This document shows, piece by piece, positions 29,492-39,059 of a stretch of DNA of 64,000 nucleotides (position 1 is the stretch's first letter; each line of letters starts with the position of its first letter). The stretch comes from Planctomycetota bacterium (GTDB lineage Bacteria > Planctomycetota > B15-G4 > SIAN01): contig JANNXA010000024.1 in assembly GCA_031409275.1 (NCBI GenBank), forward strand, positions 1 to 64,000, in the 5' to 3' direction. The position numbers were made by a program, and so were the translations under genes. Below the pieces are notes generated by a model. That model saw only the letters and a list, made by a program, of their open reading frames with translations, did no database searches and was not told where the DNA came from.

Positions 29492-30985
29492 ATGTCCCGC
29501 TCGCTCTACGGCCTGATGAAGCGTCGTCGCATGCCGCGCGTCGATCCCGCGAGTCGCCGCGACTGGCTGAAGCACGTCGCCGCCGCGGGTGCCGCCCTCC
29601 TCTGGAGCGGGAGCTTGAGCGGCTGCGCGGGGCTCGGCGCGCGCCGCGACGGCAAGCGCGTGGTCGTGGTGGGCGGCGGATTCGCCGGCCTCACCGCCGC
29701 GAGCCAGCTGCTCGCGATGGGCTACGACGTGACGCTGCTCGAGGCGCGCTCGCGCGTCGGCGGACGAGTCGTGACCTTCTCCGACTTCGTGACCGGCCGC
29801 ACCGTCGAGGGCGGCGGCGAGCTGATCGGCAGCAACCACCCGACCTGGCTCGCGTACGCCGAGCGCTTCGGCCTCGAACTCACCGAGATCGTGGAGCCCG
29901 AGGAAGCGGAGTTCCCGGTCGTGCTCGATGGCCAGCGACTGACCGCGGAAGAGTCGGCCGCGCTCTACGAAGAGCTCGATGCCGCGGTGACCACGATCAA
30001 CGACGATGCGCGCGCCATCGATGCCGACGCGCCGTGGACGAGCGCGAACGCCGCCGCCCTCGACGCGCGCTCGACCGCCGACTGGATGACGGCGCTCGAA
30101 GTCTCGCCGCGCTGCAAGGATGCGCTGCGCGCGCAGTTCGAGGCTGACAACGGCGCGCCGCTCGAGCGCCAGAGCTACCTCGCCAACCTCGCGCAGGTGA
30201 AAGGCGGCGGCGTCGAAACCTACTGGACCGACAGCGAGACGCATCGCTGCGCCGGTGGCAATCAGCGCCTCGCGCAGGAGCTGGCGAAGACGCTGCAGGT
30301 CGACGGGAAGAGCCGCGTCCGACTCAACGCCGCCGTCGCCCGCATCGACCACGCCGGTGCGGTGGTCAAGGTGACGCTCTCCGATGGCAGCGTGCTCGAA
30401 GCGGACGATGTCGTCCTCGCGCTGCCGCCTTCGTTGTGGGGCACGATCGCGTTCGACGTCGCCCTTCCAGCCGAGCTGACGGTGCAGATGGGCGTCAACG
30501 TGAAGTACCTCGCCGCGGTGAAGAGCCGCTATTGGGAAGCGGCGGGGCTCGCGGCCGACGCGCTCTCCGATGCGACCGTCGGCTGGACGTGGGACGCGAC
30601 CCACCGCCAGGTCGGCCCCGGCGACTGTGTGTTGACGGCGTTCTCCGGCGGGCCCGGCGCCGAGCAGGCGCGCGCCTTCCCTGCCGCGCAGCGCGACGAG
30701 CGCTACGCCGCCGAGCTCGACGTGCTGCTGCCGGGCTTCCGCGCGAACTTCGTGCAGTCGCGTTTCATGGATTGGCCGAGCGATCCGCTGACGCGCGCCA
30801 GCTACTCGATTCCGACGCCCGGCCAGCTCATGCGGTTCGGCCCGCTGCTGAAGGCCGGACTCGGGAAGCTCCACTTCGCGGGCGAACACTGCAGCCACGC
30901 CTTCGTCGGCTACATGGAAGGCGCGCTCCAATCGGGCGTCGCCGTGGCGCGGCGGCTCGCGAGCCGCGACGGGCAGCTGCGCTGA
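29492..30985 (+). CDS. Flavin monoamine oxidase family protein, Tat lipoprotein
   Basis: SRRDWLK...LSGC; GGGFAGL...EARSRVGGR; FAGEH...GYMEGALQSG. Confidence 0.9.
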   Translation: MSRSLYGLMKRRRMPRVDPASRRDWLKHVAAAGAALLWSGSLSGCAGLGARRDGKRVVVVGGGFAGLTAASQLLAMGYDVTLLEARSRVGGRVVTFSDFVTGRTVEGGGELIGSNHPTWLAYAERFGLELTEIVEPEEAEFPVVLDGQRLTAEESAALYEELDAAVTTINDDARAIDADAPWTSANAAALDARSTADWMTALEVSPRCKDALRAQFEADNGAPLERQSYLANLAQVKGGGVETYWTDSETHRCAGGNQRLAQELAKTLQVDGKSRVRLNAAVARIDHAGAVVKVTLSDGSVLEADDVVLALPPSLWGTIAFDVALPAELTVQMGVNVKYLAAVKSRYWEAAGLAADALSDATVGWTWDATHRQVGPGDCVLTAFSGGPGAEQARAFPAAQRDERYAAELDVLLPGFRANFVQSRFMDWPSDPLTRASYSIPTPGQLMRFGPLLKAGLGKLHFAGEHCSHAFVGYMEGALQSGVAVARRLASRDGQLR

Positions 30986-31009
30986 CGCGACTCCGTCGGC
31001 TCGCGCGGA

Positions 31010-31365
31010 TCACCGCGGCTTGCGCGCGACACGCAAGTGCAGCGGCCAACGCACGGCTCGCACCTGCGCCGGATCGCCCCACGATCGCGCCAATCGCGGC
31101 GCGAGCGCCGCCAGCGGATCGACGCGCGTGCGCCGTCGCTGCTGCTGCACGGCCGACCAGGTCGACAGGTAGCCGAGCACCCCCGCGAAGCTCAGCTCCT
31201 GCTCGATCGCGAATCGCGGCAGCTGCTCGGTGCTGACGTCGGTCGCCAGGACGCGCGCGCGGCGAGTGGCGCGAAGAGCGCCGCGGGGTAGCGCGGACGA
31301 AACTGCGCGTACCCGGCCGCATGGCCGGCGAAGAGCGAGCGGTAGTCAGGAGGGGTCGGCGCCAT
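31010..31365 (-). pseudogene. Degraded class I SAM-dependent methyltransferase
   Basis: Fragments in different frames: DYRSLFAGHAAGYAQFRPRYPAALF / RVLATDVSTEQL / LGYLSTWSAVQ...DPLAAL...WGDP...VRWPLHLRVARK*; SAM motif I and most of the core are missing. Confidence 0.75.
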
Positions 31366-31372
31366 CACGTGA

Positions 31373-32854
31373 CTACTCCTCGAACTCCACCACCCCGCGC
31401 CGCCACTCGGGGGGCAGCGCCTCGTGCAACGGCACGATCCAGCTTGCCGGCGCGAGGTTGCGCTCGACCGCGGCAAGGTCGACGTCCGGATCGATCAGCG
31501 CCTGCGGATCGCGGCCGTTCAGCGAGCAGTCGACGATCGCGCGCACCTGCGGGCGGCGCGCGGCGCCGGTGGCGGGATCGACGACGGTGAAACGATCGGC
31601 AAGGTGATGCGCGTACTGCAGCACCATGTCGGGGCGATCGGCCATCTTCTGCGCCTGCCAGTCGGTGAGTTCAGCGCGCGGGTCGATGAGCTGGCGGGCG
31701 CCGCTCGCCGGGTCGGTGACGACGAAGGTCGCGAGCGAGCTCTTGCTGCGCAGCTTCATGTGCCAGCTGAAGAGGTGCCCCTCCTCGGTCCAGCTCACCG
31801 GTCCGGGATAGAGCAGATGGCGCAACGGGAAGAGGAGCTGGTAGGCCAACCAGAGCCCCGCCAGTGCGAGCGTCACGCGAGCGACGGCGGGAGCGCGCCG
31901 CGGCGCCGAAACGGCCGCCTTCGCGCCAACGGCGGTTGCGGGTGCATCGCTCCGCTCGAGCGCCGCGAAGACGCCTGAGTCGTAGCCGAAGAGTGCGCGC
32001 CCCGCCGCCCGCTCCTCTCGTCGCCAACCGCCGCGCAGCCGACCGATCAGTCGCGCGGGCCAATCGGGCGCGAAGAAGAGGGTCGTCGCCGCGATGGCGA
32101 GCCACGGAAAGATGCCGATGTCGAAGAGGGCGGCATTGGCGAGGTGGAACGCGGTCAGCGCCAGGAACATCGCCAACCGCGTGCGCCGCCAGCAGAGCAG
32201 CGGCACCGCCAGCAGATCGAGCAGCAACCCCGACCAGCTCATCAGCCACGGCGCCAGCGGATGGAGCAGCAGCGAGCCGACGACGGGCAGCTCGCCGCGG
32301 CTCTTCAGCCATTGGCGCAGCGGCTCGCCCTGCAGCCAATCGCTGTTGCACTTCGCCAACGCGGCGTAGCCGTAGACGATCGCCATCTGCGTCCGCAACA
32401 GCAGCAGCGTGAGACGGGACGCGGGCCGCGAGCCGTGGCGCATCGCGCGCAACGACCACGCCCCATCGGTCGGCAGCCAGGCGAGCAGCAGCGCGAGGAG
32501 CAGCACCAGATAGAGGTGGTTCAGGTAGCGCGCCTGCTCGAGCAGGAAGACGTAGCCGAACCCCGCGAAGAAGAGCAGCGCCGCCCACCGCGTCCACCAA
32601 CCGATGGCGATCAGCGCTCCGCAAGCCGCGAGTCCAGCGAACAGTGCCTGCAGCCACGGTAGCGGAAGACGCTCGACCCACCCGAAGCCGAAGTAGTCGA
32701 AGTGAAACGGGGGCGCGACGTAGTGCGACTCGATCCAGCCCGCGGTGAAGAAGCGCACCACTTCCCACACCATCAACCCGCCGAAGGCGATGCGGAAGAA
32801 GGCGAGCGAGTGCGCCGGGATGGGTGCGGCGAGGCGCTCGCGCAGCCGTTCCAT
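31373..32854 (-). CDS. HTTM-domain / vitamin K-dependent gamma-carboxylase-like membrane protein
   Basis: SLAFFRIAFG, YLNHLYL, YGYAALAKCNSDWLQGEPL, IGIFPW, WTEEGHLFSWHMKLRSK, RPDMVLQYAHHL, SLNGRDPQALIDPDVDL. Confidence 0.9.
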   Translation of the reverse strand: MERLRERLAAPIPAHSLAFFRIAFGGLMVWEVVRFFTAGWIESHYVAPPFHFDYFGFGWVERLPLPWLQALFAGLAACGALIAIGWWTRWAALLFFAGFGYVFLLEQARYLNHLYLVLLLALLLAWLPTDGAWSLRAMRHGSRPASRLTLLLLRTQMAIVYGYAALAKCNSDWLQGEPLRQWLKSRGELPVVGSLLLHPLAPWLMSWSGLLLDLLAVPLLCWRRTRLAMFLALTAFHLANAALFDIGIFPWLAIAATTLFFAPDWPARLIGRLRGGWRREERAAGRALFGYDSGVFAALERSDAPATAVGAKAAVSAPRRAPAVARVTLALAGLWLAYQLLFPLRHLLYPGPVSWTEEGHLFSWHMKLRSKSSLATFVVTDPASGARQLIDPRAELTDWQAQKMADRPDMVLQYAHHLADRFTVVDPATGAARRPQVRAIVDCSLNGRDPQALIDPDVDLAAVERNLAPASWIVPLHEALPPEWRRGVVEFEE

Positions 32855-32865
32855 GAGGCGCCCCC

Positions 32866-33471
32866 TCAGCGGATCTTCGTGAGGTTCTGCACCTCGACCA
32901 GCTTGCCGTGGAGGTCGAGCACGAAGGTCACCACCGCGCCCGGGACGATGCGCGCGACACCGTCGTCGCCCGGACGCTCCTGCACCCAGCGCGCGAGGAT
33001 GAAGTGCTGCTCGTGCTGGATCGTGTCGAAGCGCAGCGCACCGACGCCGTCGGGCAGCGCGAAGAGCGACGGATTCTTGTCGAGCAGCTGCTGCGTGAAG
33101 AGGCGAATCTGCGGATCGCCGAAGACGCCGGGGCCAAGCTTGCTCGACAGCGAGAAGCCCTTGATGGCGATCAAGCCGGCGATCGGCGCCGCGTCGGGAT
33201 CGTGCGACTCGATCTGCTGGAACTCGCGCAGGGTCCAGTCGACCGGCTGCCCATGGCGGCGGTCGCCGGCGGCGGCGAAGAAGCCGTCGTCATCGTCGTC
33301 GCAATCGTCGTCGTCATCGTCGAAGCCGTCATCGTCGTCGTCGAAGAAGTCATCATCGTCGCCATCGCAACCGCTGCGCACGCTGCAGCTCGCGCCGCCT
33401 AGCGCACCGGCCGCAAGCACCAGCACGGCGACCCTCCCGACCGTGCCGAACATCGCGCGCGCCGCGCTCAT
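32866..33471 (-). CDS. Putative lipoprotein with a poly-Asp tract and an FTP-propeptide-like C-terminal domain
   Basis: Hydrophobic signal ending GGAS-C; GCDGDDDDFFDDDDDGFDDDDDDCDDDDDGFF; stop lies 11 bp before the HTTM ATG. Confidence 0.75.
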   Translation of the reverse strand: MSAARAMFGTVGRVAVLVLAAGALGGASCSVRSGCDGDDDDFFDDDDDGFDDDDDDCDDDDDGFFAAAGDRRHGQPVDWTLREFQQIESHDPDAAPIAGLIAIKGFSLSSKLGPGVFGDPQIRLFTQQLLDKNPSLFALPDGVGALRFDTIQHEQHFILARWVQERPGDDGVARIVPGAVVTFVLDLHGKLVEVQNLTKIR

Positions 33472-33704
33472 GAGTCCGCTGCTGCCACGTTCCACGACTC
33501 GCTCCTCGCCTGCGCCTGCGCGCGAACGCCTCGCGAACGCGCGCTGCCCCCGCTCGTGTCGACGGCGATCAGAGCAAGGCGAGGGCCACCCCGTTGCAAC
33601 CTCCCCGCGTGAGCCGCCCCTGCCGCCACGGGCGGTTGCGATGCAAGATGGCGCGCTCGCAGCGCTCCGCCTGGCGCCGCACCAACGCAAGAGAGGGAAG
33701 AAGG

Positions 33705-36700
33705 ATGCGCACCGTCCTCGCGTTCGCGGCCATCGCCGCGTCGTCCGCTTCGCACCTCGCGGCGCAACAGCCGCCGCCGGCCTTCGCGACGCAGCAGCTT
33801 TCCGATCAGTTCCTGTGCGAAGGCGCTTCGTTCGGCGACTTCAACCGCGATGGCAAGGGCGACGTCGTATCGGGGCCCTACTGGTACGAGGGACCCGACT
33901 TCGCGAAGCGCCACGAGATCGCCGACCCCGTCGCCTACGACCCGCTCGGCTACTCGAAGAACTTCTTCGCCTTCCCGTTCGACTTCGACCGCGACGGCTG
34001 GCTCGACCTCTTCTTCGTCGGCTTTCCCGGCGAGCGCGCCTGGTGGGCGCAGAACCCGAAGGGCGAGGAGCGACGCTGGGTCGAGCACGACGTCTTCGCG
34101 ACCGTCGACAACGAGTCGCCCGCCTTCACCGACGTGACCGGCGACGGCCAGCCCGAGCTCGTCTGCATCAGCGGCGGCCGCTGGGGCTACGCGACGTTCG
34201 ACGCGAAGGAGCCCGCCAAGCCGTGGACTTTCCACGCGGCGTCGCCCGACCTCGGTCTGCAGCGATTCACGCACGGCCTGGGTCTCGGCGACCTGAATGG
34301 CGACGGCAAACCCGACCTGCTCGAGCGCACCGGCTGGTGGGAGCAGCCGAAGTCGCTGGCCGGCGATCCGCTCTGGACCCGGCACGACTTCCTCTTCTCC
34401 GCAGGCCACGGCGGCGCGCAGATGCTGGTGGACGACGTCGACGGCGATGGCGATGCCGACGTCATCTCGAGCCTGAACGCCCATGAGTGGGGCCTCTCCT
34501 GGTTCGAGCAGGTGAAGGACGCGAACGCGGCGATCACCTTCCTCGAACATCGCTTGATGAACTCGCCGACCGACCCGCATCCGAAGGACGTCTGCTTCTC
34601 CGAGCTGCACGCGTTGGCGCAGGCCGACATCGATGGCGATGGCCTGAAGGACTTCGTCACTGGCAAGCGCTTCTGGGCGCACGGCCCGACCGGCTCACCG
34701 GGTGCCGGCGATCCGGCGGTCCTCTACTGGTGGCAGCTGGTGCGCACGACGGCGGGCGGATCGGCCGGCCAGAGCGGCGCGGCGACGTTCGAACCGCATC
34801 TCATCGATGACGCGAGCGGCGTCGGCGTGCAGGTCGTCGCCGGCGACCTCAATGGCGACGGCAAGTGCGACGTCGTGGTCGGCAACAAGAAGGGGACGTT
34901 CGTCCACCTGCAGGTGACGGACTACGTCGATCGGGTCAAGCAGATCCTCGAGGAGAAGCGTCGCGAGCAGGAGAAGGCGCGCGGCGGGATCGTGCCGCAG
35001 GCGGCCACGACGCCGCGCCTCCACCCCGGCCGCGACGACGGCACGCTGCCGCTCGGGCTCGACGGCAAACCGCTCAACACCGACTTCGAGACGGGCGACC
35101 TGCGCGACTGGATCGCCGAGGGCGACGCCTTCGAAGGGCAGCCGATCCGCGGCGACTCACCCAAGGCACGCAGTCGCGAGTCGAGCCTCCACGACGGCGA
35201 CTGCTGGATCGGCGGCTACGAGAAGTTCGGTGACGATCGCCAGGGGACGCTGCTCTCGGCGCCGTTTCGCGTGACGCAGCCCTTCGCCAGCTTCCTGATC
35301 GGCGGCGGTCCGCACCCGACCACCGTCGCCGAGCTGCTGCGCTGCGACGCCGCAGGCGCGCCGCTCGACGCGCCGCCCTTCTTCCGCTGCTTTGGCGCGG
35401 GCTTCGAGTCGCTGCAGCCGATCGTCGTCGACCTTTCGCGCGAGCAAGGCAAGGTGATCCGCATCCGCCTCACCGACGCGCAGGGTGGCCATTGGGGGCA
35501 CGTCAACTTCGACGACTTCCGCGTGCACGCGAAGCGCCCGGAAGTGAAACGGCCGCCGGGCGTGCCGCTGATCCTCGAGCCTGATCCGCCGATCGCCAAT
35601 GGACTGGCACCGCAGGACGCGGCGAAGGCGATGAGCGTCGGGAACGGCTTCCACGTCGACCTCGTCGCCGCCGAGCCCGACCTCCATCAGCCGATCGCGC
35701 TGTGCGTCGACGCGAAGGGGCGCCTCTGGGTGGTCGAGGCGCACAGCTACCCGCAACGCGAGCCCGAAGGGCAAGGCAAGGACATCGTCCTGGTCTTCGA
35801 GGATCGCGACCTCGACGGGCGCTTCGAGACGCGCACCGAGTTCATGCAGGGGCTGAACCTCGTCTCCGGCCTCGAGGTCGGATTCGGCGGCGTCTTCATC
35901 GGCGCCTCGCCCTACCTCCTCTTCGTGCCGGACCGCAACGACGACCTCGTGCCTGACGGCGAGCCGGAAGTGCTGCTCGATGGCTGGCACTACGAGGACA
36001 CGCACGAGACGCTGAATGCCTTCGCGTGGGGCCCTGACGGCTGGCTCTACGGCTGCCACGGCGTGTTCACCCACTCGCGCGTCGGCAAGCCGGGCACACC
36101 CGACGCGCAACGCGTGCCGCTGAACGCCGCCGTCTGGCGCTACCACCCCCAGCGCCGCGATTTCGAGATCTTCGCGGAAGGGACCAGCAACCCTTGGGGG
36201 CTCGACTGGAACGACCAGGGCGAGGCGTTCATCAGCGCGTGCGTGATCCCGCACCTCTTCCATCTGGTGCCCGGCGGCCGCTACATCCGCCAGGCCGGCG
36301 GCCCGTTCAATCCCTACACCTACGTCGAGATCGACACGATCGCCGACCACCCGCACTATCCCGGCAACGATCCGTGGGGTGCCAACGGTCGCAGCCACGC
36401 GTTCGGTGGCGGCCACGCCCACTGCGGCGCGCTGATCTACCTCGCCGAGCAGTTCCCCGCCGAGTACCGCAACTCGATCTTCATGGGGAACATCCACGGC
36501 AACCGCGTGAATCGCGACCTGCTCGAACCCGACGGCTCCGGTTACGTCGGCCATCACGGCGCCGACTTCCTGCTGGCCAACGACAAGTGGTTCCGCCACA
36601 TCGCCAGCCGACTCGGCCCCGACGGCTCGATCTACATGATCGACTGGTACGACGCGCAGGCGTGCCACCACACCGACGACAAGATCTGGAATCGAACGAA

Positions 36701-39059
36701 CGGCCGCATGTACCGCGTGAGCTACGCGGCCGAAGGCGCGCCGGCGGCGGAACGACTGCCGGTCAACGTGCCGGCGATGGCCGAGAACGCGCTGCTGCGC
36801 GCGCAGGCCGACGCGAACGAGTTCTGGGTGCGCCGCAGCCGAGTCGAGCTGCAGCAACGCGGGCTCACTGCGAGTGGCGTCGCCACCGCCGAGCAGCTCT
36901 TCACGCTGCACGCCGATCCCACGCGTCGGCTGCGCGGACTGTGGCTGCTGCACGCGTGCGCGAAACTGCGGGACGAGCTGGCGCTCGCAGAGCTTCAGAA
37001 GGACAGCGACGCTCACGTCCGCGGCTGGATCGTCCGACTCCTGGCCGAAGACCACCAGGTGAGCGCGGAGGCGTTGGCGCAGTTCACGAAGCTGGCCAAG
37101 GACGATCCCTCGCCGATCGTGCGCCGCGAGATCGCCTCGGCACTGCAACGGCTGCCGCTCGAACAGCGCTGGGCCCCGCTCGCCGCGTTGCTCGCCCACG
37201 GCGAGGACAAGGACGACCGCAATCTGCCGGCGCTCTGCTGGTACGCGCTCGAGCCACTGGTGGGTGCCGACCCGGCGCGCGCGTTCGCACTGCTGCCCGG
37301 CATCGCGCACGAATCGCTGCACGAGCTGGTGATCCGCCGCGCCGCAGCCGATCCGCGCTGCCACGACGCGCTCATCCTCGCGCTCACGTTCCTGCCGGAG
37401 CCCGGCGCGCAGCGCTGGCTGCTCGACACGATGCACGGCGAACTCGAGGAGCAGCGCGGCCTCGCCACGCCAGCGGGCTGGCCGGCCGTCTACGCGAAGC
37501 TGAAGGCGCAGCCGGAGACTGCGCGCGCGGCCTTGCAGGTCGCGCTCGACTTCGGCGATCGCTCGGCGGTGCCGGAGCTGCGCGCCGCCGCCGCCGAGAA
37601 GGGCGCCGAGATCGAGTGGCGACGGCAGGCGATCGCGGCGCTCGCCCAGCTGAAGGACGGCGAGTCGGTCCGCGGCCTGATCGAGCTGATCGGCGAGCGC
37701 GAAGTGCGCCGCGACGCGCTGCGCGCGCTGGCGAGCTTCGACGACGGCACGATTCCGATGCTGGTGCTGCTCGGCTACGAGCAGTTCGACGCCACCGAGC
37801 GGCGCGAGGCGATCGACACGCTCACCGCGCGCGTCGAGTGGGCGAGGTTGCTGACCGTCGCCATCGGCGGCGGCAAGGTGGCGCGCGGCGAGTTGCACGC
37901 CACCGCGCTGCGCCGCATGCGCGATTTCAAGGACAAGGACCTCGACACGCTGATCGCCGCCAACATCGGCCTCGTCCGCGACACTCCCGAAGAGAAGCAG
38001 AAGCGGATCGCCGAGCTGAAAGCGGGACTGACCGCCGATGCGCTCGCCCGCGCCGACCTCGAGCACGGCCGCGCGCTCTTCGCCGCCACCTGCATGAAGT
38101 GCCACGCGCTGCTCGGCGTCGGCGGGAAGATCGCCCCCGACCTGACCGGCTCGAATCGCGCCGATCTCGATTACCTGCTGACCAACGTGATCGACCCGAA
38201 CCAGGTGATCGGCAAGGATTACCTGGTGACCAACGCCTTCCTGAAGGACGGCCGCATCGTCAGCGGCATCGTGCTGCGGGAGAACGACAGCGCCGTCACG
38301 TTGCAGGCGGAGAACGACGTCGTGACGGTCGCGCGCGCCGATCTGCAGTCGCTCAAGCCGAGCAAGGTGTCACTGATGCCGGAAGGGCAGCTCGACACCT
38401 TCGCGCCCGACGCGATCCGCGACCTCATCGCCTACCTGCAGAGCGGCTCGCAAGTGGCGATGCAGGCAACGGCGGCGACAGCCCCTTACCTCTTCGACGG
38501 CAAGAGCCTCGCGTTGTGGCGTGGCGACCTCGCGCTCTTCAGCGTGGAGAGCGGCGAGATCGTCGGTCGCACGACGACCGGCATCGACCACAACGCCTTC
38601 CTCCTCTCCGATCTCGTGGTGGGTGACTTCGCGCTCTCGCTCGAGGTTCGCCTCGTCGGCGACGCGGGCAACAGCGGGATCCAGTTCCGCAGCGTGCCGG
38701 TCGGCGACGATCCGTTGCGCTTCGAGATGAAGGGCTACCAGGCCGACATCGGGCCGGGCTGGTGGGGCAAGCTCTACGAGGAGCTCGGCCGCGCGATCCT
38801 CTCCGAGGTTTCGGGCGAACCGCACGTCGTGAAGGATGGCTGGAACCGCTACGAGATCGTCGCCACCGGCGGTCGCGTGCGCACCCGCATCAACGGCCAT
38901 GTGACCACCGACCTCGACGATCCGGAGGGTGCGCGGCGCGGGCAGATCGCGCTGCAGATCCATTCGGGCGGACCGACCGAGGTGCGCTTCCGGAAGCTCG
39001 AACTGGTGGTCGATCCGCCGGCGCTGCCGGCCGTGGGCGTCGACGCAGGAGCACGGTGA
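33705..39059 (+). CDS. PVC-type heme-binding CxxCH multidomain protein (FG-GAP repeats + beta-propeller dehydrogenase-like + HEAT + cytochrome c + DUF1080)
   Basis: Signal peptide; repeated GDFNRDG/GDLNGDG motifs; AAEPDLHQPIA...GRLWV, DTHETLNAFAWGPDGWLYG; HEAT-like helices; CMKCH...PDLTG...SLMPEG; C-terminal GNSGIQFRS...IALQIHSG. Confidence 0.9.
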   Translation: MRTVLAFAAIAASSASHLAAQQPPPAFATQQLSDQFLCEGASFGDFNRDGKGDVVSGPYWYEGPDFAKRHEIADPVAYDPLGYSKNFFAFPFDFDRDGWLDLFFVGFPGERAWWAQNPKGEERRWVEHDVFATVDNESPAFTDVTGDGQPELVCISGGRWGYATFDAKEPAKPWTFHAASPDLGLQRFTHGLGLGDLNGDGKPDLLERTGWWEQPKSLAGDPLWTRHDFLFSAGHGGAQMLVDDVDGDGDADVISSLNAHEWGLSWFEQVKDANAAITFLEHRLMNSPTDPHPKDVCFSELHALAQADIDGDGLKDFVTGKRFWAHGPTGSPGAGDPAVLYWWQLVRTTAGGSAGQSGAATFEPHLIDDASGVGVQVVAGDLNGDGKCDVVVGNKKGTFVHLQVTDYVDRVKQILEEKRREQEKARGGIVPQAATTPRLHPGRDDGTLPLGLDGKPLNTDFETGDLRDWIAEGDAFEGQPIRGDSPKARSRESSLHDGDCWIGGYEKFGDDRQGTLLSAPFRVTQPFASFLIGGGPHPTTVAELLRCDAAGAPLDAPPFFRCFGAGFESLQPIVVDLSREQGKVIRIRLTDAQGGHWGHVNFDDFRVHAKRPEVKRPPGVPLILEPDPPIANGLAPQDAAKAMSVGNGFHVDLVAAEPDLHQPIALCVDAKGRLWVVEAHSYPQREPEGQGKDIVLVFEDRDLDGRFETRTEFMQGLNLVSGLEVGFGGVFIGASPYLLFVPDRNDDLVPDGEPEVLLDGWHYEDTHETLNAFAWGPDGWLYGCHGVFTHSRVGKPGTPDAQRVPLNAAVWRYHPQRRDFEIFAEGTSNPWGLDWNDQGEAFISACVIPHLFHLVPGGRYIRQAGGPFNPYTYVEIDTIADHPHYPGNDPWGANGRSHAFGGGHAHCGALIYLAEQFPAEYRNSIFMGNIHGNRVNRDLLEPDGSGYVGHHGADFLLANDKWFRHIASRLGPDGSIYMIDWYDAQACHHTDDKIWNRTNGRMYRVSYAAEGAPAAERLPVNVPAMAENALLRAQADANEFWVRRSRVELQQRGLTASGVATAEQLFTLHADPTRRLRGLWLLHACAKLRDELALAELQKDSDAHVRGWIVRLLAEDHQVSAEALAQFTKLAKDDPSPIVRREIASALQRLPLEQRWAPLAALLAHGEDKDDRNLPALCWYALEPLVGADPARAFALLPGIAHESLHELVIRRAAADPRCHDALILALTFLPEPGAQRWLLDTMHGELEEQRGLATPAGWPAVYAKLKAQPETARAALQVALDFGDRSAVPELRAAAAEKGAEIEWRRQAIAALAQLKDGESVRGLIELIGEREVRRDALRALASFDDGTIPMLVLLGYEQFDATERREAIDTLTARVEWARLLTVAIGGGKVARGELHATALRRMRDFKDKDLDTLIAANIGLVRDTPEEKQKRIAELKAGLTADALARADLEHGRALFAATCMKCHALLGVGGKIAPDLTGSNRADLDYLLTNVIDPNQVIGKDYLVTNAFLKDGRIVSGIVLRENDSAVTLQAENDVVTVARADLQSLKPSKVSLMPEGQLDTFAPDAIRDLIAYLQSGSQVAMQATAATAPYLFDGKSLALWRGDLALFSVESGEIVGRTTTGIDHNAFLLSDLVVGDFALSLEVRLVGDAGNSGIQFRSVPVGDDPLRFEMKGYQADIGPGWWGKLYEELGRAILSEVSGEPHVVKDGWNRYEIVATGGRVRTRINGHVTTDLDDPEGARRGQIALQIHSGGPTEVRFRKLELVVDPPALPAVGVDAGAR

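Follow-up and report, generated by a model that had tools for sequence, protein, structure and literature searches.

Introduction

Both the vitamin K-dependent carboxylase of animals, GGCX, and its bacterial orthologue MloH modify a carbon that adjoins a free carboxylate. MloH, known from malonomycin, carboxylates the alpha-carbon of an aspartyl unit (PMC12186529; PMC12647623; bioRxiv 2026.08.19.745780), and the malonomycin intermediate is the only substrate named for bacterial GGCX homologues in the searchable papers. Adjacent-gene systems have also been described or predicted, namely a split complex of DUF5819 with HTTM-DCC1 (bioRxiv 10.64898/2026.08.19.745780) and the DAG-RiPPs (PMC13056109). 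Our literature search, with most subscription papers outside its scope, found no protein substrate for a bacterial homologue and no enzymatic beta-carboxyaspartate in proteins. Here, we describe a pair of adjacent genes in a Planctomycetota bacterium (GenBank assembly GCA_031409275.1, contig JANNXA010000024.1, positions 1 to 64,000; this stretch of 64,000 nucleotides is called the window), in which an exported poly-Asp protein, hereafter the partner, is encoded beside a carboxylase homologue, hereafter the enzyme:

32866..33471, minus strand: gene for the exported poly-Asp protein, the candidate substrate (201 aa), a member of a family of 122 representatives
31373..32854, minus strand: gene for the full-length vitamin K-dependent carboxylase homologue (493 aa), as judged by Pfam, GGCX alignment and structure model
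33286..33366, minus strand: poly-Asp tract of the partner, 21 of 27 residues Asp, with Cys35 before it and Cys57 inside it; predicted disulfide-closed loop

The catalytic residues are retained in bacterial GGCX homologues, which are widespread; in this pair, one such enzyme has beside it a small, ribosomally made candidate substrate with an Asp loop that follows the enzyme gene.

The poly-Asp tract tracks the enzyme

The pair is real and conserved, and the genomic signal that links its two members is unusually specific. The comparison covered 44 loci, each with roughly 1.5 kb of flanking sequence (three further matches are not part of this set). The enzyme adjoins the partner in 16 of the 17 loci whose loop carries 12–21 Asp per 27 residues, once on the upstream side, and in 0 of the 27 loci with 7 or fewer, which include one fragment without a readable loop, one peptidase fusion and one locus with 266 bp of downstream flank. 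The 17th high-Asp locus (G597) is cut by a contig end; a second contig terminates in the enzyme gene, and its upstream neighbour matches that in G596. Six more loci with other loops also have no adjacent enzyme (0/6, giving 0/33 in total). Note that the threshold of at least 12 Asp per 27 was chosen after the data had been seen, and that none of the 44 loci lies between 7 and 12. Within one class of 339 genomes, the enzyme stands beside the poly-Asp partner in all seven carriers, while the enzyme is found elsewhere in 4 of the 29 low-Asp carriers, close to the background of 39/339. The naive Fisher test for the association gives p 4e-11, which is overstated. The original prediction had pointed to acidic lipoproteins beside HTTM genes in relatives as the linkage to look for; this linkage is conserved, and it follows the Asp tract itself (16/17 versus 0/33).

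On a tree built from the partner's domain only (40 of the 44 rows), the loop state needs 6 changes (6–8 in bootstraps), with adjacency changing alongside. The cleanest case of enzyme loss with tract decay is G016, which shares the upstream methyltransferase with its congeners G035 and G038, while the loop has decayed and no HTTM match is found in a genome that is 90% complete. G001, of the same genus (L008 / L022, G001:C76:3063-3551), carries a signal and a short Asp loop fused to unrelated sequence, and both the domain and the carboxylase are gone from the locus; it was not counted as a joint loss of tract and enzyme, since a single deletion explains it. The metagenome scan yielded 2 loci only.

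Could the pair be merely an inherited gene order with no functional tie, the tract being a low-complexity spacer or a sorting signal like that of Bacteroidetes? We consider this very improbable. Partner-linked enzymes do fall mostly into one clade (13/15 on a quick tree with weak deep support), only two contrasts are well supported, and the G001 deletion took domain and enzyme together. However, the surroundings in which the pair is kept differ, its carriers span several orders and classes, both gene orders occur, and the loss of the enzyme coincides with tract decay in G016. As for sorting, acidic residues after the lipid-bearing Cys do mark surface export in Bacteroidetes, where the signal is K-(D/E)2 or Q-A-(D/E)2 right after this Cys (PMC5080379), but the tract here begins 8 residues from the Cys and follows neither pattern, with the first Asp at +8 and no preceding K or Q.

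The poly-Asp partner and its family

The composition of the tract is as first reported from the sequence, with one Cys before it and one inside. It contains no Glu, and among 47,261 six-frame open reading frames (ORFs) it is the most Asp-rich 27-mer of the genome. The tract is encoded by mixed GAC/GAT codons and is kept in 9/9 close homologues at 46–72% identity; therefore, a slippage artefact, which the original prediction had thought unlikely, is rejected as its origin. It has low confidence in the structure model and is probably flexible. The remaining parts of the protein are as follows:

33385..33471, minus strand: signal or membrane helix ending in Cys29; model helix at residues 4–25
32875..33240, minus strand: C-terminal domain, like the propeptide of M4/M36 peptidases (FTP-like), with no protease domain attached

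The equivalent of Cys29 is conserved in 98/99 aligned family members, and the number of Cys from this residue to the domain is odd in 96/98. Cys29 is the probable lipid-anchor cysteine, and the odd count would fit one lipidated Cys plus disulfide pairs, here Cys35–Cys57 around the tract. The canonical lipobox is [LVI][ASTVI][GAS]C, whereas position -3 in this family is G, S or A in 88/98 members and never L, V or I. Consequently, the lipoprotein-type signal of the original prediction stands in its helix and conserved Cys, but its lipobox is non-canonical.

The best structural match of the C-terminal domain is the M36 propeptide 4k90_B (Z 7.7, which is middling; root-mean-square deviation 3.8; 87 aligned), and an Atlas match to FTP at 0.84 is a lead only. 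Pfam has no match for this domain, FTP (PF07504) included, and neither Pfam nor NCBIfam has a named family for the partner or for the poly-Asp neighbours L095, L096 and L105 described below. The same domain type recurs at the N-terminus of long M36-like proteins. A domain profile search gave the 122 representatives of the family, at 50% clustering; most members are 170–280 aa long and consist of a hydrophobic helix, the conserved Cys, a variable loop and then the 120-aa domain. The loop may be poly-Asp, His/Asp-rich, Cys-rich or a short DxDxDG type, and since Asp, His and Cys loops are interchangeable at one position, a metal-binding role is suggested. Of 105 short representatives, 47 carry at least 12 Asp, 27 carry 8–11 and 31 carry no more than 7. 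The partner is thus more than the Asp-tract lipoprotein first described: the tract is present, but it belongs to a large family with a propeptide-like domain and exchangeable loops.

Two offshoots of the family may be mentioned. One large clade has a conserved loop with seven Cys (C..EDCDPC..C.C..C) in place of poly-Asp and no adjacent carboxylase (L075-L091, L094, L129-L131, L133 and L134), and may form a separate metal-binding or disulfide-rich module. The member L010 / L021 (G023:C105) combines a signal, a short Asn/Asp/Glu loop and the propeptide-like domain with an HExxH peptidase-like region in one chain, and this fusion is perhaps the ancestral architecture of the family.

The carboxylase homologue

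In one chain, the enzyme matches PF05090 (HTTM; E 9e-73, 245.5 bits) and PF22777 (VKGC lumenal domain; E 1e-40, 139.3 bits), both above the curated Pfam cut-off of 27.7 bits; NCBIfam gives it no family name. Residues 4–490 align to human GGCX (E 2e-35), and the alignment stops at residue 518 of the 758 in the human protein, so that the C-terminal propeptide clamp is absent. The structure model (predicted local distance difference test, pLDDT, 93) has TM-scores of 0.62–0.76 against 16 GGCX chains, and Foldseek matches it to 9wfc_A with E 4e-20 and TM-score 0.74. Nine membrane helices are predicted, with bounds set by hand from the model; the alternation of the Arg/Lys-rich loops fits this number of helices and an outer C-terminal domain, for which a periplasmic position is predicted. 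Two sites are of special importance:

32516..32521, minus strand: Asn112-His113, equivalent by alignment to GGCX N159/H160, the holders of the substrate carboxylate (roles from PMC12647623)
32351..32353, minus strand: Lys168, equivalent to the GGCX catalytic base K218; invariant in 56/56 aligned homologues

The motifs NHLY, AKCNSDW, SWHMK and SLNGR..Q..IDP..D, which the original prediction had taken as GGCX-like, are present and align to human GGCX, and the catalytic residues, Lys168 among them, are found where they were expected. The Asn/His pair is invariant among the aligned homologues as well. In human GGCX numbering, the catalytic base and the quinone/CO2 pocket are kept at 10/10 positions (K218, W223, D263, A214, G259, F286, N290, F294, F299 and M401), and H287 is likewise kept. 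The changes relative to GGCX are W157Y, K217A, Y395H, M402K, H404R, R406K, R436K and H440R, the last being read off the GGCX alignment. In the triad N159/H160/Y395, therefore, N and H are kept and Y395 is replaced by His360, a change shared with most of the bacterial homologues that do not belong to the imelysin clade described below; the Ala mutant of Y395 in GGCX is impaired (PMC12647623). In GGCX, R406 and H440 neutralise the preceding carboxylated residue (residue roles from PMC12647623 and bioRxiv 2025.02.09.637231), and the more basic site of the bacterial enzyme would suit a polyanionic substrate.

The missing clamp raises an alternative, in which the partner is an accessory subunit whose domain or acidic loop replaces the clamp, or activates or inhibits the enzyme, the true substrate being another protein. 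That the enzyme lacks the GGCX residues beyond about 518, that the partner's domain resembles peptidase propeptides and that split systems with an accessory DUF5819 are predicted (bioRxiv 10.64898/2026.08.19.745780) would agree with it. Nevertheless, we regard this alternative as improbable: the lumenal domain ascribed to DUF5819 is already in the carboxylase, 33 loci carry the partner's domain but not the enzyme, another 49 carry the enzyme but not the domain, and the part that co-varies with the enzyme is the tract, not the domain.

Enzyme loci outside the partner family

Among the 49 enzyme loci without the partner's domain, 47 have a full-length enzyme. An unrelated exported protein with 12–22 Asp per 25 residues lies near the enzyme in five of the 47, three of them planctomycete (L095, L096 and L098) and two with alphaproteobacterial S8 peptidases (L043 and L044). 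It should be noted that the all-genome scan relied on six exact peptide patterns, all taken from a single protein, so that its 23 loci are a biased sample. Two unnamed types of planctomycete exported protein carry Asp runs beside the carboxylase, one at L095:3263-4171, L098:3-608, L105:3333-4139 and L108:3467-4348 and the other at L096:3355-3933; four of these five genes are convergent with the carboxylase, and the four that were scanned have no Pfam family. In the neighbourhood survey suggested by the original prediction, the pairing is tract-linked within the partner family, while a poly-Asp neighbour is missing beside most bacterial relatives of the enzyme.

The S8 peptidases belong to a sigma / anti-sigma / secreted S8 peptidase module with N-terminal poly-Asp (L043:2179-6368, L044:1784-6380 and Paracoccus L135-L164; sigma and anti-sigma labels assigned by eye), a subset of which is carboxylase-linked. 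According to genome lists compared by hand, 26 of 151 Paracoccus genomes have the enzyme, and the poly-Asp S8 peptidase is present in 24/26 genomes with the enzyme versus 44/125 without it; 12 enzyme–S8 pairs lie within about 8 kb. However, in the 30 of 72 S8 matches that were read, all 18 proteins from enzyme-free Paracoccus keep 11–21 Asp per 27, and because of this the Paracoccus S8 tract does not need the enzyme, and such tracts work unmodified. The general rule that any poly-Asp exported protein needs the enzyme is rejected by these proteins, and also by six other acidic tracts in the source genome, which has no second copy of the enzyme.

A separate enzyme clade, mostly with N290T and M401V, is found in imelysin operons. 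An imelysin with an Asp-rich, DxDG(D/S)-like tail makes up 9 of the 12 neighbours read in that clade, directly upstream of the enzyme (L045, L054, L055, L057, L058, L060, L062, L113 and L117).

These loci bear on a further alternative, which we judge unlikely but worth serious weight: partner and enzyme share a metal or calcium job with the tract unmodified, plain poly-Asp binding cations while the enzyme acts on a small molecule or another protein or only oxygenates quinone. The persistence of the Paracoccus S8 tracts without the enzyme, the His, Cys or DxDxDG loops of unmodified type in sister proteins, the lack of a poly-Asp neighbour at most enzyme loci and the imelysin operons all speak for it. 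It does not account, however, for the restriction of the enzyme to the Asp-loop form within one family, for the recurrence of unrelated Asp-rich exported proteins beside the enzyme, or for the invariance of the carboxylate-binding Asn/His pair.

Proposed mechanism

We hold it to be rather probable that the enzyme carboxylates the Asp loop of its adjacent partner to beta-carboxyaspartate in the periplasm. As GGCX and MloH both act beside a free carboxylate, the corresponding carbon of a protein Asp would be C-beta and the product beta-carboxyaspartate, although the beta-carbon of a protein Asp as the target is extrapolated from the alpha-carboxylation by MloH. The partner would be exported and lipidated at Cys29, with Cys35 and Cys57 closing the tract into a loop, and the membrane enzyme, whose active site would face the periplasm, would carboxylate Asp residues in this loop with reduced menaquinone, O2 and CO2. 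Lys168 would deprotonate menaquinol, and the oxygenated quinone would take a proton from the carbon beside the Asp side-chain carboxylate, which may be held by Asn112, His113 and His360. Lys367, Arg369, Lys371, Lys403 and Arg407 may allow movement along the polyanion without a propeptide. The product would be a malonate-type loop of clustered beta-carboxyaspartates, predicted to bind calcium or another metal, and this modified loop would take the place that His or Cys loops have in sister proteins.

For the quinone supply, the source genome (5.59 Mb, 93% complete) has two VitK2_biosynth genes (MqnA/MqnD family, of the futalosine menaquinone pathway). A DCC1-like thiol-disulfide oxidoreductase is encoded beside the carboxylase in three distant lineages (L042:6319-6714, L044:4502-4861 and L098:2632-3084), and it possibly recycles the quinone epoxide where VKOR is missing.

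Several points weigh against carboxylation of the tract. Mammalian GGCX carboxylates Asp poorly, and a Leptospira homologue reportedly epoxidises vitamin K without carboxylating Glu substrates. In the enzyme, Tyr395 is replaced by His and the propeptide clamp is missing; no VKOR match that would account for epoxide recycling is found in the source genome. The enzyme also occurs in Paracoccus salsus and Neomegalonema, where MqnA/D gave no match and MenB none above the cutoff; both of these alphaproteobacterial enzymes carry D263H and G259V, and the lack of menaquinone markers together with this altered quinone pocket raises the question of another quinol. On the genomic side, once kinship is corrected for, the well-supported branches of the domain tree force only 2 changes, which gives 2 concordant independent pairs and a sign test of p 0.5, and a single clade accounts for 20 of the 27 low-Asp loci. 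A tract of at least 12 Asp per 25 is absent nearby in 42 of the 47 enzyme loci outside the partner family, the enrichment of Asp-rich neighbours (p 3e-4 at the background rate of the source genome) is only p 0.085 at a 5% rate, and the enzyme-free Paracoccus S8 proteins keep their tracts.

In a wider reading, which is plausible but falls somewhat short of probable, full-length GGCX homologues would processively turn exported Asp runs into beta-carboxyaspartate, as a bacterial vitamin K protein-carboxylation system that makes mineral- or metal-binding polyanions. The proposed substrates would be this lipoprotein family, the unrelated planctomycete surface proteins, the Paracoccus S8 peptidases and the imelysin tails. 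If true, such a system would be a prokaryotic counterpart, and possibly a forerunner, of gamma-carboxyglutamate (Gla) chemistry. Carboxylation of the partner, if true, would make beta-carboxyaspartate a new enzymatic protein modification in bacteria, would shed light on how vitamin K-dependent carboxylation arose and would point to a way of making dense calcium- or metal-binding surfaces.

Gene layout and neighbourhood

The two minus-strand ORFs, 32866-33471 upstream and 31373-32854 downstream, are separated by 11 bp, just as first described, and the purine-rich stretch that had been noticed over the upstream stop is also present:

32861..32867, minus strand: Shine-Dalgarno-like GAGGGGG, overlapping the TGA stop of the upstream gene, 6 nt before the carboxylase ATG

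Judging from this spacing and overlap only, the poly-Asp gene and the carboxylase gene are probably co-transcribed. No sigma-70-like promoter and no meaningful terminator were found in 30900-33800. An alternative GTG start at 33495, 8 codons upstream, corresponds to the 209-aa database form of the poly-Asp protein. Directly after the carboxylase lies a remnant of a class I S-adenosylmethionine methyltransferase gene (31040-31364, minus strand), with internal deletions and out of frame; an intact copy is present in G004 (L018:4762-5556). Divergent from the pair, the gene at 33708-39059 (plus strand) encodes a 1783-aa protein with FG-GAP repeats, DUF7133, HEAT repeats, cytochrome c and a 3-keto-disaccharide hydrolase domain, and a homologue occupies the same place in the four same-genus genomes.

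Comparison with known systems

The partner's C-terminal domain has its best structural matches in the M4/M36 propeptide (FTP, PF07504; 4k90_B and 3nqz_A), and like this propeptide it begins M36-like proteins. Unlike it, the domain stands alone in the partner, membrane-anchored and with no protease domain, and the resemblance is structural and of middling strength, Pfam being silent.

As in DAG-RiPPs, a precursor with a lipoprotein signal is encoded beside a candidate modifying enzyme. However, the DAG-RiPP enzymes are MNIO iron enzymes that go with Cys motifs (PMC13056109), whereas the neighbour here is HTTM/VKGC, and the main text of that paper makes no mention of HTTM or vitamin K. The pair is therefore not a DAG-RiPP. 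The DUF5819 + HTTM-DCC1 split complex (bioRxiv 10.64898/2026.08.19.745780) is likewise a bacterial GGCX-like system of adjacent genes, but in that complex the neighbouring protein is predicted to make up the full enzyme, while the present enzyme is complete in itself and has an acidic exported protein beside it.

The comparison with animal GGCX draws on PDB 9wfc, 9l21 and others and on PMC12647623 and bioRxiv 10.1101/2025.02.09.637231. The enzyme shares with GGCX the fold (TM-score up to 0.76), the nine membrane helices, the residues N159/H160/K218/W223/D263/F299/M401 and basic residues at the R406 and H440 positions, and the candidate substrate has clustered acidic residues on the exported side. 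It differs in having no C-terminal propeptide clamp, in His at Y395 and in Lys and Arg at M402 and H404. Unlike Gla proteins, the candidate substrate offers Asp rather than Glu, has no propeptide and is encoded next door, in a genome with no VKOR match. With no clamp, no propeptide and Asp instead of Glu, the pair falls outside the animal Gla system.

MloH is, like the enzyme, a bacterial single-chain GGCX orthologue, and it acts on an aspartyl unit. No polyketide synthase or non-ribosomal peptide synthetase genes were seen beside the pairs read. Whereas MloH modifies the alpha-carbon in a polyketide-peptide intermediate, the candidate substrate here is a ribosomal protein, in which the site of carboxylation would be the beta-carbon.

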